Shown piece after piece: positions 445 to 38,307 of a stretch of DNA of 38,307 bases (positions are counted from its first letter, which is position 1; each line of letters starts with the position of its first letter). The stretch is from assembly GCA_038207085.1 (NCBI GenBank), contig JBBRAE010000027.1, forward strand, positions 1 through 38,307, written 5' to 3'. Position numbers and translations under genes: made by a program. The DNA comes from Armatimonadota bacterium (GTDB lineage Bacteria > Armatimonadota > UBA5829 > DTLH01). The notes below the pieces were generated by a model. The model had not been told where the DNA came from, made no database searches, and saw only the letters and a program-made list of their open reading frames with translations.

Positions 445-1329
445 ATGAGACGGTATGGTCCAGAGGAAGAGCGTTCGCCTCGTAGTGAGGCCGTCAGTGA
501 GATCATTCAAGAAGTTGGAGATGAGATCGCGGCGGCTGTCGCCGTCCCAGGAGAGATCACCTACCGGACGATGGACCGGTTCTTCACCTTCATCGGCGGC
601 ACATCCGAGCTTCTCTGGAGAGCTATCGCCTGGATCTTCCGTGGTGGCGTCGAACTGAGAGAGACGTTTGTGCAGATGGCCACCATCGGCGTTGCGTCAC
701 TTCCTATCGTCCTCGTAACCGTTACTTTTTCCGGAATGGTGCTCGCGCTCTACTCTGCGCAGACGCTCGTTGCCTTTGGCTTCGGCGGCCAGTTCGTCGG
801 AGGCGGGGTGGGGCTTTCGATCGCTCGTGAGATCGGCCCCGTGCTTACGGCCGTAGTCGTCGCTGCCCGGGCTGGGTCTGCGATGGCGGCTGAGATCGGG
901 AGCATGAAAACGACCGAACAGGTCGATGCTCTGCGCGCTCTTGCGGTCGACCCTGTGCAATATTTGGTCGTCCCGCGGCTCCTGGCATCGGTTGTGATGC
1001 TGCCCGCGATCACGATTCTTGCCGATCTTGTCGGCATATTTGGCGGGTATCTCGTCGCGATTGTGAACGGCGTCCCAAGTGGCGCTTTTGTGTCGAGCCT
1101 GCAGTATATGGCATCAAGCGAGGATGTTATTCTCGGGCTTGTGAAGACCGTTTTTTTCGGTGCGATGATCGCGATCGTCGGCTGCCACGAAGGTTTGAGG
1201 ACCAAGGGCGGCGCGACCGGGGTCGGTCAATCGACGACACGCGCGGTGGTGCTTTCGATAGTCCTTATATATGTAAGCAACTTTTTCCTGGCCTACGTGC
1301 TCTTCGGCGGCCGAACTTCGGGGCCATAG
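445..1329 (+). CDS. mlaE: MlaE-family lipid ABC transporter permease
   Basis: Motifs REIGPVLTAVVVAARAGSAMAAEIGSMKTTEQVDALRALAVDPVQYLVVPR and GGATGVGQSTTRAVV. Start codon may be further downstream. Confidence 0.93.
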   Translation: MRRYGPEEERSPRSEAVSEIIQEVGDEIAAAVAVPGEITYRTMDRFFTFIGGTSELLWRAIAWIFRGGVELRETFVQMATIGVASLPIVLVTVTFSGMVLALYSAQTLVAFGFGGQFVGGGVGLSIAREIGPVLTAVVVAARAGSAMAAEIGSMKTTEQVDALRALAVDPVQYLVVPRLLASVVMLPAITILADLVGIFGGYLVAIVNGVPSGAFVSSLQYMASSEDVILGLVKTVFFGAMIAIVGCHEGLRTKGGATGVGQSTTRAVVLSIVLIYVSNFFLAYVLFGGRTSGP

Positions 1330-1331
1330 AC

Positions 1332-2075
1332 GTGATAACCGTAGAACAGCTATCCTATAGAATAGACAGCAAGTCGATCCTGCGGCGGCTCGATGTTCAG
1401 GTGGAGACGGGTGAGACGTTCGCGGTGATGGGGCTATCGGGCGTAGGCAAGAGCACGCTTTTGAAGTGCATCGGCGGGCTGATCAAGGCCACGTCCGGTA
1501 AGATATTTATCGATGGGGCCGATATTGTCCCGATGCACGAGTCACAGCTCCGGGAAGTGCGCAAGAAGATCGGGATGGTCTTCCAGTATGCTGCGCTTTT
1601 TGATTCGATGACAGTATTTGAAAACGTAGCCTTCGGCGTGCGTCGCTTGAGAAAGCTCGAAGAGGACGAACTCCGGGATATCGTCACCAGTAAGCTCGCG
1701 CTCGTTGGGCTGTCGAACACCGAGAGCCTGATGACTTCGCAGCTTTCGGGCGGGATGCAGAAACGAGTCGGCCTTGCGCGGGCGCTTGCGCTCGATCCGC
1801 CGGTATTGCTATACGACGAGCCGACGAGTGGCCTTGACCCGATCACAGCCGCGACAATCGGTGAGTTGATCGTTCGGATGCGTGACAAGCTCGGCGTGAC
1901 ATCGGTGGTCGTGTCGCACGATATCGCGCTTATCAAACAGGTTTCGAACCGAATGGGGATGCTCTACCGGGGCAAAATAGTGTCCGCCGGTACGCGCGAG
2001 GAGATGGAAAACTCCGACAATCCCCTCGTCCGACAGTTTATGGAAGGCAGCACGGAAGGGCCGATCAAGTTATAG
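1332..2075 (+). CDS. mlaF: MlaF/Mkl-family ABC transporter ATP-binding protein
   Basis: Walker A GLSGVGKS, signature LSGGMQKRVGLARAL, YDEPTSGLDPI. GTG start, located between mlaE and mlaD. Confidence 0.92.
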   Translation: MITVEQLSYRIDSKSILRRLDVQVETGETFAVMGLSGVGKSTLLKCIGGLIKATSGKIFIDGADIVPMHESQLREVRKKIGMVFQYAALFDSMTVFENVAFGVRRLRKLEEDELRDIVTSKLALVGLSNTESLMTSQLSGGMQKRVGLARALALDPPVLLYDEPTSGLDPITAATIGELIVRMRDKLGVTSVVVSHDIALIKQVSNRMGMLYRGKIVSAGTREEMENSDNPLVRQFMEGSTEGPIKL

Positions 2076-2228
2076 CTGTTAGCTTTTAGCTTTTAGCAAT
2101 TAGCTTGAGATCGCGCTGGGTCTCCAGACCCGGTGCGGATATTCCCAGGGTCTCTGACCCCGCAGTGCACGGATCGGGGTCAGAAACCCATCAAATATGC
2201 GTTCCGCGTCTGGAGACACGGCACGATC
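2071..2228. repeat. 7-bp tandem arm (TTAGCTN-like) plus nested REP cassette (family B)
   Basis: tagctgt-tagcttt-tagcttt-tagcaat-tagc, followed by GATCGCGC...GCACGATC. 2191-2228 matches 33550-33587 at 37/38 nt. Confidence 0.8.
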
Positions 2229-2243
2229 AGATCAGTTACTCAC

Positions 2244-3566
2244 ATGAGATTAAGACCTGAAGCAAGAGTAGGTTTAATAGTATTTCTGTCGCTCCTGTCG
2301 CTTGGAGTGGTCTACTGGTTTTTTGGTGGACTGGGCGGCGGCGGGTATCTGGTCAACGCCGTCTTCCCGAGCGCTGAGCGGCTGCAGACCAAGGCCGAAG
2401 TGCGTATGGCGGGTGTGTTGATCGGCAAGGTCAACGACATCGTGCTGACCAGGGGCAACCGGGCCAAAGTCGTCATGCGAATAAGCAGCAGGTACGAGGG
2501 CAAGATTCCGAAGGACTCCATCGCCCAAATCACGACGGGTGGTGTTGTGAGTGTTGGTGATTATTTCATCGACATCCTGCCGGGCAAAAGCTCCGAGGCT
2601 CTGAAGGACGGCGCATATCTGAATACTGTCCAGCAGGTGCAGCTTGAGGACATGATCGGCGACGTGAAGGACCTGATCACGGGGCTAAAGACTACCGTCA
2701 GCTCGGTGAACGAAATCGTTGCCGACCCGAGGATGAAGTCGTCGCTGCGCCGGATCGTCGAAAATGTCGAGTTCACGACGGCAAGGACGTCCGCTCTGAC
2801 TAACCAGATTCAGGCGGTGCTTGCCGAGAACGCTTCCGACATCGACGGGATTCTGGCAAACGTCGCGTCGGCGAGTCAGGATTTTGCCACTGTGTCGGGT
2901 GACATCCGTTCAGGGCTCGAAAACGGCGGCATGGACCGCGTTCAGGCGGCTCTGGATAACGCTGTGCGGGCGTCGGAAAACCTTGAGGCGGCGAGCTTGA
3001 AGCTTCGCCAGCTTGCCGAAGACCCGAACGTAAACGCCCAGCTCAGACAAACGGTGAAGGACGCAAGCGAGGTCGCGGCGGGCGCAAATCAGATCGTGAC
3101 CAAGATCAACAAGGTGGTTAACCCGGGCAAGGGTGAGAAAAATGAGCCATCTGTGCCAAGATCGAGCATTCCAGGGCTCGGTTCGAGGTTCGACGGGTAT
3201 GTGGTAGGAGCCGCCGACAGTTATCGTTTTGATTACAACTACACGTTCCCAACCAAGGGCGACAACTTCGTGAGACTCGGGCTTTTCGACATAGGCGAGG
3301 GCACCAGCCTGAATCTTCAGGGCGGTGATGTGCTAAACGACCACAGCGCGGCGCGTTACGGGCTCTACGCAGGCAAAATAGGCGTCGGCTACGATCGAAA
3401 ACTGAAAAGCGACCTGAACCTTAGTCTGGACCTGTATGACCCGAACGACATCACGCTTGAGGCGAAAATGCGCTACAATATCGACCGAAACTGGGGCGCG
3501 TGGCTCGGTGTGAACAACGTTTTCGACGGTGGGAAGTCGCTCATCGGCGTGCAGTACCATAGGTAG
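2244..3566 (+). CDS. mlaD: MlaD/MCE-family protein with long helical region and C-terminal beta-barrel-like domain
   Basis: N-terminal TM (EARVGLIVFLSLL), MCE domain (AERLQTKAEVRMAGVLIGKV...YFIDILPG), coiled region, and amphipathic beta-strands ending GVQYHR. ATG 2244 chosen because the longer ORF start lies within a repeat. Confidence 0.88.
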   Translation: MRLRPEARVGLIVFLSLLSLGVVYWFFGGLGGGGYLVNAVFPSAERLQTKAEVRMAGVLIGKVNDIVLTRGNRAKVVMRISSRYEGKIPKDSIAQITTGGVVSVGDYFIDILPGKSSEALKDGAYLNTVQQVQLEDMIGDVKDLITGLKTTVSSVNEIVADPRMKSSLRRIVENVEFTTARTSALTNQIQAVLAENASDIDGILANVASASQDFATVSGDIRSGLENGGMDRVQAALDNAVRASENLEAASLKLRQLAEDPNVNAQLRQTVKDASEVAAGANQIVTKINKVVNPGKGEKNEPSVPRSSIPGLGSRFDGYVVGAADSYRFDYNYTFPTKGDNFVRLGLFDIGEGTSLNLQGGDVLNDHSAARYGLYAGKIGVGYDRKLKSDLNLSLDLYDPNDITLEAKMRYNIDRNWGAWLGVNNVFDGGKSLIGVQYHR

Positions 3567-3645
3567 TGGCCGATCGCCGCGCCGGCCTGAACCACTTTAC
3601 ACTACACACTGAACTTTGAACTCTTAACTTAGAGAAGGAGATGAT

Positions 3646-4092
3646 ATGAAAATCATTCTTAAGCAGGACATCAAGGGAGTCGGCAAGGCCGACGAGGTGA
3701 TAAACGTTTCGGCTGGCTACGCGAGGAACTTCCTGTTCCCCAAGGGCCTTGCGATTGACGCCGACGCCACCAACCTGAAAGAGCGCCAGAAGCGACACGA
3801 CGTTATAGACGCCAAAGGCGAGAAGATCCTTACCGCCGCTCAGGAGGTTGCGAGTAAGATTTCTGACAAGACGTTCAAGATCAATGCAAAAGCCGGGGCC
3901 GCCAACAAGCTTTACGGCAGCATCACCTCCCAGGACATCGCCGACGCGATCAAGGCGCAGGCCGGGGTAGACATCGACAAGCGCAAGATCCACATTGTCG
4001 ACCCGATCAAGACCGCCGGGAGCCACACCGTTCCCGTAAGGCTCCATCGCGACCTTGGCGTCGATGTCACTGTCGAGGTAGTCACGGAATAG
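3646..4092 (+). CDS. rplI: 50S ribosomal protein L9
   Basis: [14 protein letters not shown]...[13 protein letters not shown]...KLYGSIT. AAGGAG RBS. Confidence 0.98.
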
Positions 4093-4096
4093 AGAA

Positions 4097-4183
4097 CTAT
4101 TAGCTATTAGCAGTTAGCTGTTAGCAGTCTCGGGGAGCACAAATCCGATTGCTAACAGCTAATAGCTAACGGCTAACTGCTGG
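4097..4183. repeat. inverted pair of 7-bp tandem-repeat arms forming a long hairpin
   Basis: Left arm (TTAGCTR-like)n at 4097-4127, right arm (GCTAAYR)n at 4149-4183. Confidence 0.8.
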
Positions 4184-4189
4184 TTGTAT

Positions 4190-5614
4190 ATGGAACATAT
4201 TTCGAAGTTAGAGCGGCTGCCGCCGCAGAATATCGAGGCTGAGCAGTCGACTCTTGGGTCGATGATGCTTGACCGTACCGCCATCGAAAAAGGCGCGGAT
4301 ATCCTGAAGGAACCGGACTTTTACAGGCCTAGCCACGGGGTCATCTTCGACGCAATCTGTTCGCTGAACGAGCGCGACGAGCCGGTCGACCTCATCACCC
4401 TGCAGGAAGAACTGAGAAGCAGAGGCAGGCTTGAGGACGTCGGCGGGACGGAGTATCTGATGGCGCTCTTGTCGCAGGTGCCGTCGGCCTCACGCATTGA
4501 GCACTACGCGAAAATCGTCGAGGAGAAATCCATCCTCAGGCGGCTCCTTGGCGCGTCTGCCGAGATCGGCGGGCTCGTCTACGAAGAAACACAGGACATC
4601 GAAACGCTCACCGACCGGGCCGAGCAGGCGATCTTTAGGGTCTCGCAGCGGCGGATGGGGAAGTATTTCTCCCCGCTTGCGCCGGTCGTTATGGAGGCCT
4701 GGGACAGGCTAAACGCGCAGTGGGAGCAGGGGAGCACCATCTCCGGGCTCGAAACTGGGTTCAGAGATATCGACCTGATGACTTCGGGGTTCCAGCCCGG
4801 CGACTTGATCATCGTAGCCGCCCGACCGTCGATGGGAAAAACCGCCTATTCCATGAACATCGCGACCTTCGCCTCGGTGAAGAAGAAACTGCCCGTTGCG
4901 GTGTTCAGTATAGAAATGTCAAAGGAACAGCTCGCATTGAGGATGCTTTCGAGCTACTCGCGGATCGAGAACCAGCGCCTGCGCTCCGGGTTCCTGCATG
5001 ATGAAGAGTTTGTCCGCATCTCACACGTCACCAACGAGCTTTACCAGGCCCCGATGTTCATCGATGACTCGACAGACATCACCCCGATGGGTATGCGAGC
5101 CAAGTGCAGGCGTCTAAAAGCCGAGCACGGCGGCCTCGCGTTGGTCGTGGTCGACTACCTCCAGCTTTTGAAATGGCACAGGAACATCGACAACCGTGTC
5201 CAGGAGATTTCTGAGATCGCCCGAGCCCTGAAGAGCCTCGCGAGAGAGCTAAAAGTCCCCGTGGTCGCGCTTTCCCAGCTTTCGAGGCGAGTTGAGCAGC
5301 GAGACGACAAGCGGCCTATTCTTTCCGACCTCAGGGAGTCAGGCTCCATCGAAGCTGAAGCCGACGTGGTTATGCTCCTCTTCCGCCCGAAGTATTATGA
5401 GCGAAAAGAGATGGTGGACGCCGAGGAAATTGCTGGAATCGACTCTTCGACAGGCAAACCCAAGTTGCGCGAGGTAGGGGTAACCAATATCGAGGACGTT
5501 GAGATTATCATCGCCAAACAACGAAACGGTCCTACCGGCACGGTTCTCCTAGGGTTTGAATCGAACTACGCCAACTTCGTCAACATCGACAAACAGCATC
5601 GCGACGAGTATTAG
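4190..5614 (+). CDS. dnaB: replicative DNA helicase
   Basis: PPQNIEAEQSTLG, AARPSMGKT, VDYLQL, LSDLRESGSIEAEAD, IIAKQRNGPTG. Confidence 0.97.
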   Translation: MEHISKLERLPPQNIEAEQSTLGSMMLDRTAIEKGADILKEPDFYRPSHGVIFDAICSLNERDEPVDLITLQEELRSRGRLEDVGGTEYLMALLSQVPSASRIEHYAKIVEEKSILRRLLGASAEIGGLVYEETQDIETLTDRAEQAIFRVSQRRMGKYFSPLAPVVMEAWDRLNAQWEQGSTISGLETGFRDIDLMTSGFQPGDLIIVAARPSMGKTAYSMNIATFASVKKKLPVAVFSIEMSKEQLALRMLSSYSRIENQRLRSGFLHDEEFVRISHVTNELYQAPMFIDDSTDITPMGMRAKCRRLKAEHGGLALVVVDYLQLLKWHRNIDNRVQEISEIARALKSLARELKVPVVALSQLSRRVEQRDDKRPILSDLRESGSIEAEADVVMLLFRPKYYERKEMVDAEEIAGIDSSTGKPKLREVGVTNIEDVEIIIAKQRNGPTGTVLLGFESNYANFVNIDKQHRDEY

Positions 5615-27524: not shown

Positions 27525-27599
27525 GGCGCCATGGTCTATCGGTTAGGACACGTCTCTTTCAAGGACGTAGGACGGGTTCGACTCCCGTTGGCGCTACCA
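27525..27599 (+). tRNA. tRNA-Glu (anticodon TTC)
   Basis: Acceptor GGCGCCA/TGGCGCT, D arm GGTC..GGAC region, anticodon arm CGTCT-CTTTCAA-GGACG, T arm ACGGG-TTCGACT-CCCGT, encoded CCA. 75 nt. Confidence 0.96.
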
Positions 27600-37180: not shown

Positions 37181-37591
37181 GGAAGGGTTGGATGTTGGGG
37201 GTTGGAATGGCGAGACTTGGGGGATTTAATAAGCTTCCCTTTGTTGTAGTACGTCGAGAAATTTGTGCATCGCACCCTTCGAGAGCCTCAGGGTGAGGGG
37301 TTGGCTTGGGTGGGGATATGAGAGATTGTGCATCTACCCTAAGCCTGCATTATTCACGAGTAGCGTGAATAATGCTCTGTTAGCGGGCTAAGCCTGCACA
37401 ACCGCCACCCTGAGTCATGCAGAGGCTCTCGAAGCACGAAGGGTGATCGACCACCAATCTCCCATATTTGATCAATCCAAACTATATCACGTTGAGGCTC
37501 TCGAAACGTGCGCTCCACCCAAAGAATCAACACACGCCAATCCCTGGGAGCTAATCCCAAGCCCCCAACCCCTATCCTCCAAACCCTTCCC
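37180..37591. repeat. composite repeat region bounded by inverted arms, with nested REP hairpins
   Basis: Outer arms GGGAAGGGTTGGA.../...TCCAAACCCTTCCC. Inner CCCTTCGAGAGCCTCAGGG-type units near 37274, 37406 and 37492, and a family A hairpin at 37341-37376. Confidence 0.65.
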
Positions 37592-37702
37592 CAAAATTCC
37601 CGTACTTCTGCAGAGTCCGAAAGCTGGAATACGCGGCATAATCATAGTGTAAGTTGAATAAAGACAACTGAATATGGGAAATGTTCATACTGTTTCCAGA
37701 GC

Positions 37703-37841
37703 ACGAAAATGGCAAACTCGTCGAAAGGCGGGGGCGCAAAGCTACAGGGCCTAAACGGTCCGGCGCTCATTATTGAGGTCTTGTTTTTTCGAGAGTTGAA
37801 TAATGGGCGCGAGGGACTGCATTGGCAGCCTGGCCGCCGAA
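37703..37841 (+). promoter_or_regulatory. c-di-GMP-I (GEMM-I) riboswitch aptamer 1, with extended P3
   Basis: GGCAAAC-TCGTC-GAAA-GGCGGG-GGCGCAAAGCTACAGGGCCTAA ... TGGCAGCCTGGCCGCCGAA matches the class I consensus (GNRA tetraloop, receptor, GCAAA junction). Confidence 0.85.
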
Positions 37842-37862
37842 GCTAAACTTCACGCGTGCGAC

Positions 37863-37958
37863 ACCGATAAGGGCAAACCTCGGGAAATCGAGGGACGCAA
37901 TGCCAAGGGACTACGGTTGCTACAATTTGAGCGACTATGTCAGCCTGGCTGCCGAAGG
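37863..37958 (+). promoter_or_regulatory. c-di-GMP-I (GEMM-I) riboswitch aptamer 2
   Basis: GGGCAAACC-TCGG-GAAA-TCGAGG-GACGCAATGCCAAGGGACTAC...ATGTCAGCCTGGCTGCCGAA. Confidence 0.88.
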
Positions 37959-37965
37959 ATCGAGC

Positions 37966-38237
37966 GATCTTTGGCCCCGTCCCTGCTTGTGAGGGTCGGG
38001 TTTCAATAAATGCCTGCCGGTGTCTGGAAAGGATGTGGACCCATGACCCGGCGGGCGGTTACCTGAAGCGCAGTTCGCGCAGCCAGGCCCCAAGGATCAG
38101 AGCACAGGCATCAGTTAAGAGGGACATAACCTCATGATGCCGACTAGACACCAGTCTATAGCCTGTGCCCCTTGGAGTGTGGTGACGTGGACGAGGCCGA
38201 AGGTGGCCGCCTTGCTTCCGTACGGCTTTTCAACTCC
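37966..38237 (+). ncRNA. unassigned multi-domain structured RNA downstream of the tandem riboswitch
   Basis: Four-way junction closed by GATCTTTGG/CCAAGGATC, three-way junction closed by GCACAG/CTGTGC, and a further stem ending CGGCTTTT. No credible ORF. Confidence 0.45.
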
Positions 38238-38283
38238 CCTGTCTTGAAAGTGTCCTCGCGTATCGATTACGCATTCGACGCCG

Positions 38284-38307
38284 TTTGGAGTGCGGCGCTT
38301 GCACGCC
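38284..38307. repeat. start of a TTTGGAGTGCGG-type REP-like element, truncated at the window end
   Basis: TTTGGAGTGCGGCGCTTGCACGCC with a GGCG...CGCC hairpin. Resembles a widespread intergenic palindromic repeat, recalled from memory. Confidence 0.45.

Follow-up and report, generated by a model that had tools for sequence, protein, structure and literature searches.

A putative long expression platform downstream of tandem c-di-GMP-I aptamers in one order of Armatimonadota

Riboswitches of the c-di-GMP-I class are common, and what follows the aptamer in them is poorly understood. Tandem riboswitch architectures are said to be the subject of a review and, to our knowledge, the one well-studied long platform is that of Bc1, which behaves unexpectedly. 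Bc1 belongs to the Bacillus cereus group and is described, in the portion of its report drawn on here, as a c-di-GMP-I riboswitch with a long expression platform that contains two terminators (PMC11218506). Judged by that portion, it is the closest precedent for the locus presented below, sharing with it a long platform behind the aptamer, two terminator-like hairpins in succession and several alternative structures, and in both systems the output is hard to predict from sequence (PMC11218506). Unlike Bc1 as that portion portrays it, our locus lies in another phylum and differs in sequence, has tandem aptamers, a long-range helix that reaches back to the aptamer 5′ flank and a large insert in the second hairpin, and is known from sequence alone.

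Antisense-acting c-di-GMP-I riboswitches have been proposed from genome surveys, according to the excerpted part of a second report (PMC9943018), and offer the nearest parallel for two relatives of the locus (G001 and G002), in which the leader converges with an lptD-like gene 23-30 nt away. Unlike the riboswitches outlined in that part, the leader in the window (the whole stretch of DNA analysed here, 38,307 nt) points away from lptD, and the likeness is one of gene arrangement only. The locus also resembles c-di-GMP-I (GEMM-I) riboswitches with terminator platforms, tandem ones included (RF01051/RF03167), in having two aptamers above the Rfam thresholds, an aptamer-edge strand with two alternative pairings and, in relatives, GC hairpins with U-tracts. 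Here, unlike in the usual platforms of this class, 120-270 nt and an intervening hairpin separate the 5′ flank from the competing strand downstream, which is nearly invariant across the order; a second hairpin of 59-158 nt follows, and several genomes have no terminator U-tract or gene after it. A literature search combining “c-di-GMP riboswitch” with the phylum name “Armatimonadetes” found nothing and, among the matches listed for tandem c-di-GMP-I platforms, this arrangement appears in no title or abstract opening.

The region of interest, 37966-38237, is in our judgement likely to be the 3′ part of one long leader (about 37700-38225) that comprises two c-di-GMP-I aptamers and an unusually long conserved expression platform. 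The structured stretch is conserved in one Armatimonadota order and is best read as a switching and terminator-like part of the riboswitch itself, which a lineage-specific insert enlarges in the window, rather than as an independent ribozyme or large RNA gene.

Tandem aptamers and the downstream region

The window is one whole contig (G000:C27), and its sequence stops 70 nt past 37966-38237. The features recognised at its 3′ end are the following.

37702-37842, + strand: aptamer 1, of the c-di-GMP-I-GGC type, with a large insertion in the second hairpin (Rfam RF03167, 59.1 bits, gathering match)
37860-37866, + strand: 5′ strand of helix P0, GACACCG, directly 5′ of the aptamer 2 core (kept across members)
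37862-37956, + strand: aptamer 2, c-di-GMP-I (Rfam RF01051, 75.1 bits, E 3.9e-13)
37951-37975, + strand: linker hairpin, the aptamer tail CCGAAGGAUC paired with GAUCUUUGG (in the MFE of 37951-38241)
37976-38011, + strand: T1, the hairpin CCCG-U-CCCU / AGGG-U-CGGG (37976-38000) followed by the U-rich tract TTTCAATAAAT (MFE and homologous hairpins)
38012-38056, + strand: hairpin A, GCCUGCCGG / CCGGCGGGC, with inner GUC/GAC and the purine-rich loop UGGAAAGG (BLAST, CM R1, shuffles and pair counts)
38018-38024, + strand: 3′ strand of P0, CGGUGUC, inside hairpin A, the exact complement of GACACCG and about 150 nt downstream of it
38054-38064, + strand: 5′ strand of stem B, GGCGGUUACCU, its first three bases common with hairpin A, pairing with 38201-38211
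38065-38200, + strand: insert of 136 nt within stem B, folding as a long, irregular hairpin with the three-way junction GCACAGGC/GCCUGUGC (38102-38168) at its tip (MFE)
38201-38211, + strand: 3′ strand of stem B, AGGUGGCCGCC (family pair counts and MFE)
38212-38225, + strand: tail UUGCUUCCGUACGG, by eye like the U-tract and UUGUAC tail after terminator B of the sister family
38202-38307, + strand: contig end, in gapless end-to-end alignment with the opening 107 nt of C14, another contig of this genome (74% identity)

Both aptamers exceed the Rfam gathering thresholds (35 bits for RF01051 and 59 bits for RF03167), which confirms the tandem riboswitch placed by an initial annotation 5′ of the structured stretch. 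Besides them, the Rfam scan that this annotation had proposed, run permissively with the 4227 families of Rfam 15, gave no match at E <= 10 in 37600-38307, and 37966-38237 matches no Rfam family. For the downstream domain of seven sister-family loci, nothing related was found at E <= 1, the single match being an unrelated one (mir-974, E 0.11). The description of the region as ORF-less does not hold literally, mechanical ORFs of 30-66 aa overlapping it; these ORFs are not kept in relatives, which differ over 37966-38237 by large, non-triplet indels and whole hairpins when ORF preservation is compared. No open frame conserved as in a protein-coding gene or gene remnant was found in this interval. 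As the initial annotation had noted, the region is not a copy of the local REP families: BLAST against the own genome returned many copies for 37181-37565 only and aptamer-type matches only for 37566-38222, and the core of hairpin A occurs once. The interval 37181-37565, the spacer between the lptD-like gene and the riboswitch, is made up of members of two or more dispersed repeat families, of which dozens of copies are spread over the genome's own contigs.

Several observations concern the aptamers and their surroundings. A candidate closing helix of aptamer 1, GCACG/CGTGC (37701-37705 with 37855-37859), ends exactly where GACACCG starts; by eye, G005 has GCGCG/CGCGC and G002 GUGCG/CGCAC at this place, and the fit is poorer in G001 and M101. 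A possible -10 element, CATACT, is located at 37686-37691 in the aptamer 1 5′ flank. Further upstream in the window, 27525-27596 (+ strand) is a tRNA gene, matched by the Rfam tRNA model with 59.3 bits. Elsewhere in this genome, a further c-di-GMP-I riboswitch (L115, G000:C50:329-416, - strand) has a 5′ flank, GAUACUCC, complementary to GGAGUAUC, which lies 19 nt past the aptamer and overlaps the AAGGAGG just 5′ of an ATG, and this riboswitch looks like one that would control translation via sequestration of the ribosome-binding site.

The leader is partly covered by contigs from RNA libraries, which in one study span 37727-37911, 37891-38172 (3 differences in 282) and 37907-38096, and in a second study 37725-37984. 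The adjacent upstream interval, 37462-37706, is covered by none of three RNA runs and 12x by a DNA run. No RNA contig extends over 38173-38307, where missing cover carries no weight as evidence. This distribution is consistent with transcription from about 37700 that, at least on occasion, continues past T1 into the insert, RNA contigs giving neither the strand, the ends nor the level of an RNA.

Conserved pairing among relatives

Homologues of the downstream region, which the initial annotation had proposed to look for, exist and keep its pairings. BLAST of 37960-38307 against 40 relatives matched only 38004-38058 (hairpin A), in 14 genomes, with the sole exception of a 26-nt match to the window's tail in G039, and c-di-GMP-I aptamers lie directly upstream in 13 of the 14 matched loci scanned with Rfam. 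Exact-pattern scans added 14 genome loci and 14 metagenome loci, of which four of each were dropped because they had no aptamer-like core upstream (the genome loci coming from Coriobacteriia, Thermoanaerobaculia, Proteobacteria and Bacteroidales), leaving 23 distinct sequences. Diverged members (G006, G008, G021, G023, G009, G032 and G012) were added from downstream of other long c-di-GMP-I aptamers in the order. The comparison as a whole drew on ~28 related loci. When matches to the hairpin A core with one mismatch were sought in 400 genomes of the phylum, 0/30 examined loci had a c-di-GMP-like core upstream, and 13 class-level loci were chance or coding matches, the single regex match (L136) not being an aptamer. 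Since the matches outside the order are coincidences in coding sequence, the element belongs to one Armatimonadota order, in all three families of which it occurs. One copy was recognised in each genome having it, seven second matches in genomes of the order remaining outside this count; c-di-GMP-I aptamers number up to seven per genome in the order and are absent from 3/36. In two genomes of the sister genus g9 and one metagenome contig (L011, L012 and L100), a 5S rRNA gene precedes the riboswitch locus at a distance of a few hundred bases.

On the + strand, 37966-38237 folds with -121.7 kcal/mol and z -4.12, none of 200 shuffles being as good, against z -2.40 and 2/200 on the - strand, in line with the earlier choice of the plus strand. 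The MFE of 37951-38241 (-130.6 kcal/mol) consists exactly of the linker hairpin, T1, hairpin A, stem B and the insert, and the proposal of a structured RNA continuous with the aptamers on this strand is borne out. The three domains that had been drawn by eye fared unequally. The strings from which they were built are present, GATCTTTGG at 37966-37974, CCAAGGATC at 38090-38098, GCACAG at 38102-38107 and CTGTGC at 38163-38168. Two arms of the four-way junction (domain i), CCCGTCCCT/AGGGTCGGG and GCCTGCCGG...CCGGCGGGC, are part of the MFE, where they correspond to T1 and hairpin A; the closing helix GATCTTTGG/CCAAGGATC is absent from it. Likewise absent is domain iii (GGAGT/ACTCC), which would form a knot with stem B, a helix backed by comparison. 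Forcing the closing helix together with domain iii yields -115.2 kcal/mol, a cost of ~15 kcal/mol relative to the MFE, and both conflict with stem B or with the linker hairpin. The three-way junction closed by GCACAG/CTGTGC (domain ii) appears in the MFE as a plausible local fold and sits in the insert; BLAST having found the insert in none of the 40 relatives searched, comparison neither supports nor refutes it. The multi-junction part of the earlier drawing (domain ii and half of domain i) is the insert that was not found in the relatives searched.

The linker hairpin uses the strand that the earlier fold had given to its closing helix. The sequence GGATCGAGCG is common to the window, G001, G002 and M110 and has a shorter form, GGATCGAGC, in M101. 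T1 of the window is terminator-like and degenerate, and its homologues in G002, M101 and M110 carry compensatory changes (G-C to A-U). A simple terminator scan accepted T1 of M110 and G002; that of the window fails. T1-like hairpins are also present in G009, G028, G006/G008, G021 and G032, and none was found in G003 and G005, which also have no U-tract after stem B. The T1 5′ strand can pair with GGGAC/GGGUC segments of the aptamer core (-9 to -17 kcal/mol in 5/5 members tested). In the window's family, T1 looks like a working terminator.

Past T1 lies the near-invariant segment GCCUGC-CGGUGUC-UGGAAAGG, and the 5′ half of hairpin A is invariant. With CM R1, built from six family members, hairpin A of the window scores 34.7 bits (E 2e-4), and in all seven family members hairpin A has z between -3.1 and -4.9. 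Its outer six pairs are standard in 24/24 members having a 3′ strand, with alternation of U.G and U-A, and G023 provides one double change, from C-G to U-A. RNAalifold also predicts it from 14 sister-family sequences, with one-sided changes only. The loop, UGGARRGG, is conserved beyond what pairing needs.

Hairpin A contains the strand that can form helix P0 with the edge of the aptamer. The sequence ACACCG borders the adjacent aptamer on its 5′ side in 22/23 distinct members, the exception holding only ~115 nt of upstream sequence. Over 27 members, 189/189 P0 cells are standard pairs, a count in which most members were found through a pattern that contains the P0 3′ strand, the G034 row took a nearer spurious 5′ match (its real GACACCG was seen separately) and G021 was entered as lacking the 5′ strand, though the pair is visible in its sequence. 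The variants GACAUCG (G006 and G008) and GAUACCG (G023) keep the pairing through U.G. Both strands being almost invariant and P0 showing no double compensatory change, its support is conserved complementarity and not covariation. P0 and hairpin A are mutually exclusive, and their forced folds differ by -3.6 to +6.4 kcal/mol in 19 members, the window lying at +6.4 kcal/mol in favour of hairpin A. In these models, the P0/hairpin A pair behaves as a riboswitch switching sequence.

Other roles for hairpin A were considered. A helix between the strand freed in the P0 state (the loop) and the conserved tail after stem B was rejected, being no better than with shuffled tails (below 5% in 1/12 members), as was a leader peptide after the Shine-Dalgarno-like loop, for which start codons and frames were, by eye, not conserved. 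A nested pairing of the aptamer 1 5′ flank with UCUGGAAA of hairpin A was also discarded, being strong in the window alone: the duplex of 37683-37704 with 38019-38040 (the 5′ half of hairpin A and the loop) reaches -23.4 kcal/mol, and six other family members -6.7 to -11.4. It may be due to chance or be a nested closing helix specific to the window.

All 10-11 pairs of stem B are standard in 7/7 family members, which enclose inserts of 35-136 nt, and eight of its pairs also form in the MFE of 37951-38241. The window carries compensatory changes: at pair 8 it has A-U against G-C in the others, and at pair 9 it has C-G in common with M101 and M110, the remaining members having U-G or U-A. Among the six members other than the window, 95.5% of the cells are paired and covariation is not significant, 108/500 shuffles reaching the score; slides of +/-3 columns also pair 71-75% of the stem B cells because of a GGC periodicity. 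CM R1 did not place the distal strand of the window's stem B correctly, and the MAFFT alignment including the window misaligns its 3′ strand. The B domains, with z from -4.3 to -7.9, are every one far more stable than shuffles, vary in length from 59 to 158 nt and have only their base in common. For the window's insert, z is -5.19, with 0/200 shuffles as good. No similarity to it was found in the 40 BLAST-searched relatives or elsewhere in its own genome, and RNA-library contigs from another study carry a nearly identical copy.

The stem B of the sister family is an intrinsic terminator with a U-tract and UUGUAC behind it. Some loci have it as a simple terminator hairpin and others as a long hairpin into which further hairpins are inserted, and some of the long domains have the conserved inner loop GGUGCGAGUYU. 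The window has only UUGCUUCC after stem B and no U-tract. The tails compared by eye were UUGCUUGUACGG in G021 and UUUUCCUUGUACGG in the g9 loci, and no tested pairing accounts for the window's UUGCUUCCGUACGG. In 12/12 sister-family members, terminator B forms in the constrained folds of the P0 state and of the hairpin A state alike; its control by these states was rejected on this ground, and the output of the toggle there is left unexplained. In several g9 loci, a further ~170 nt after terminator B are conserved (GGUCUAGCAAUUAGCGA ... CUUGUAGUUCC ... GCCGCCC), as seen in L013 1110-1369 (-), L011 921-1180, L100 310-569 (-) and L102 345-604 (-), and the leader there may therefore be longer still.

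Gene neighbourhood of the leader

Four relatives from the window's family share the order nfi (divergent), leader, convergent lptD-like gene and lptF/G. Stem B of G001 and G002 is 23-30 nt away from the stop codon of the lptD-like gene, and no same-strand ORF of at least 120 aa follows the leader; in G005, a gene for a PD40-repeat protein is located between the leader and the lptD-like gene. The window has the same ftsEX-lptFG-lptD synteny, but here lptD and the leader are codirectional, and 385 nt of repeats separate the leader from the lptD upstream of it. The leader is beside the 3′ end of lptD in 5/5 family genomes having it, in either orientation. The join between lptD and leader passes through multi-copy sequence (37181-37565) and therefore depends entirely on the assembly.

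Beyond its end, the window probably continues into lipB-tamB, to judge from the alignment with contig C14, on which lipB (189-857) is followed by tamB (867-5462, 1531 aa). In five relatives, lipB is preceded by a TTGACC-N17-TATACT promoter of its own and by no aptamer, 2/5 of these loci holding <300 nt of upstream sequence. When lipB of G000 (L114, G000:C14, 100-190) is compared with these relatives (L123-L127), only GGTATACT, which includes the TATACT part, is kept, and the sequence 5′ of it differs. This suggests a rearrangement breakpoint inside the lipB promoter, next to the riboswitch leader, and since lipB of G000 retains only the TATACT part of its promoter, the leader may now drive lipB-tamB. 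In the sister family, the downstream gene encodes a BadF/BcrA-type ATPase in loci with a downstream ORF listed or scanned (G010, G013, G016, G017, G019 and G034 by N-terminal sequence; G013 and G028 by Pfam). The same-strand downstream gene thus varies, from probable lipB-tamB in the window through the PD40 gene of G005 and the BadF/BcrA-type ATPase gene of the sister family to none in G001 and G002, and these contexts do not agree with the long EPS-type operon that had been expected downstream.

Proposed switch and alternative readings

In the mechanism that we propose, c-di-GMP bound to aptamer 2 would decide whether the 5′ flank GACACCG is free for P0, and the availability of this strand would toggle P0 against hairpin A. 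The simplest relatives (genus g11), in which the P0 3′ strand is directly followed by a terminator and, in G032, the stem GGCGGG can pair with GCCUGCC, suggest how such a toggle could be read out: the 3′ strand of hairpin A would be part of the terminator stem, hairpin A would act as the antiterminator and P0 would lead to termination. In the window's family this logic would be blurred, the upstream T1 serving as terminator and its 5′ strand, paired with the aptamer core, as antiterminator. Stem B, having lost its U-tract in the window, would probably be only a stable structural or 3′-end element ahead of lipB-tamB. Whether the switch is of the ON or OFF sign cannot be told from sequence. Against the platform reading stand the failure of the window's T1 in the terminator scan and the RNA contigs that read through T1. 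The lack of a same-strand gene in G001 and G002 fits an expression platform poorly, and the pairing tested does not explain why the purine-rich loop and the GUAC tail are so strictly conserved.

Part of this evidence bears on a different reading, that the RNA itself is the product: a c-di-GMP-gated non-coding transcript, with no function as a 5′ UTR, which would act in trans or bind a protein through its purine-rich loop or, in relatives, run antisense into lptD. We regard this as unlikely. It would account for the single recognised copy per genome despite up to seven c-di-GMP-I aptamers in each, for downstream neighbours that differ among lineages, for the leader's position beside the 3′ end of lptD in either orientation and for loop conservation beyond the needs of pairing. 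The genome encodes CsrA, and the window's hairpin A loop, AAGGAUGU, may resemble a CsrA site. The leaders of G001 and G002, which end 23-30 nt from a convergent stop codon with no same-strand ORF of at least 120 aa to follow, recall the antisense action proposed from genomics for other c-di-GMP-I riboswitches, as the cited part of that work presents it (PMC9943018). The cover by RNA-library contigs is also in keeping with an RNA product, although such contigs cannot show the ends or the strand of an RNA. However, the BadF/BcrA-type ATPase gene that follows a terminator with a U-tract in the sister family is an ordinary cis arrangement, the leader is probably ahead of lipB-tamB in its own genome and precedes the PD40-repeat protein gene in G005, and its orientation relative to lptD in the window is opposite to that in relatives. 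In a more specific form, which we hold to be quite unlikely, promoter, aptamers, hairpin A and hairpin B would together constitute a c-di-GMP-gated ncRNA gene, a cassette that moves beside envelope genes (lptD and tamB) and acts via a protein such as CsrA or antisense into lptD rather than in cis.

The group I intron controlled by a c-di-GMP-II aptamer provides the model for another possibility, raised in the initial annotation, namely that the riboswitch is joined to a novel large structured RNA or to a ribozyme that cleaves itself. The very stable predicted folds (z -5 to -8) and the lack of an Rfam match would agree with it, as would the invariant nucleotides of hairpin A and the inner loop GGUGCGAGUYU of some long sister-family B domains. 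Yet the multi-junction core of the window was found in no relative searched, the B domains share only their base over lengths of 59-158 nt, the short forms of the sister family are plain terminator hairpins, neither a junction nor a pseudoknot was found to be conserved and the pairing tested between tail and loop is no better than that of shuffles. The conserved parts turned out to be a terminator-like hairpin, a competitor for the 5′ flank of aptamer 2 and the stem of the sister-family terminator, which makes a separate large ncRNA or ribozyme very improbable. The other earlier suggestion, that an EAR- or LoaP-type leader mediates processive antitermination in a long operon downstream, is scarcely credible: the leader is long and structured and a 1531-aa tamB is probably downstream in its own genome, but none of the Rfam families, EAR among them, matches at E <= 10, the contexts examined revealed neither a NusG paralogue nor an EPS operon, two relatives (G001 and G002) are without any downstream operon, and the conserved parts are terminator-like and switching hairpins.

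Read as a platform, the region downstream of the tandem aptamers is an order-wide example of a long form with a clear predicted toggle, in which the aptamer 5′ flank and a strand 120-270 nt downstream compete with a local hairpin, and of which natural variants extend from a simple terminator to a form of 270 nt. In the little-studied Armatimonadota, this leader has genes of outer-membrane biogenesis as neighbours and, in some genomes, no gene to control, a context that raises the possibility of c-di-GMP being linked to envelope assembly through an RNA-only output.
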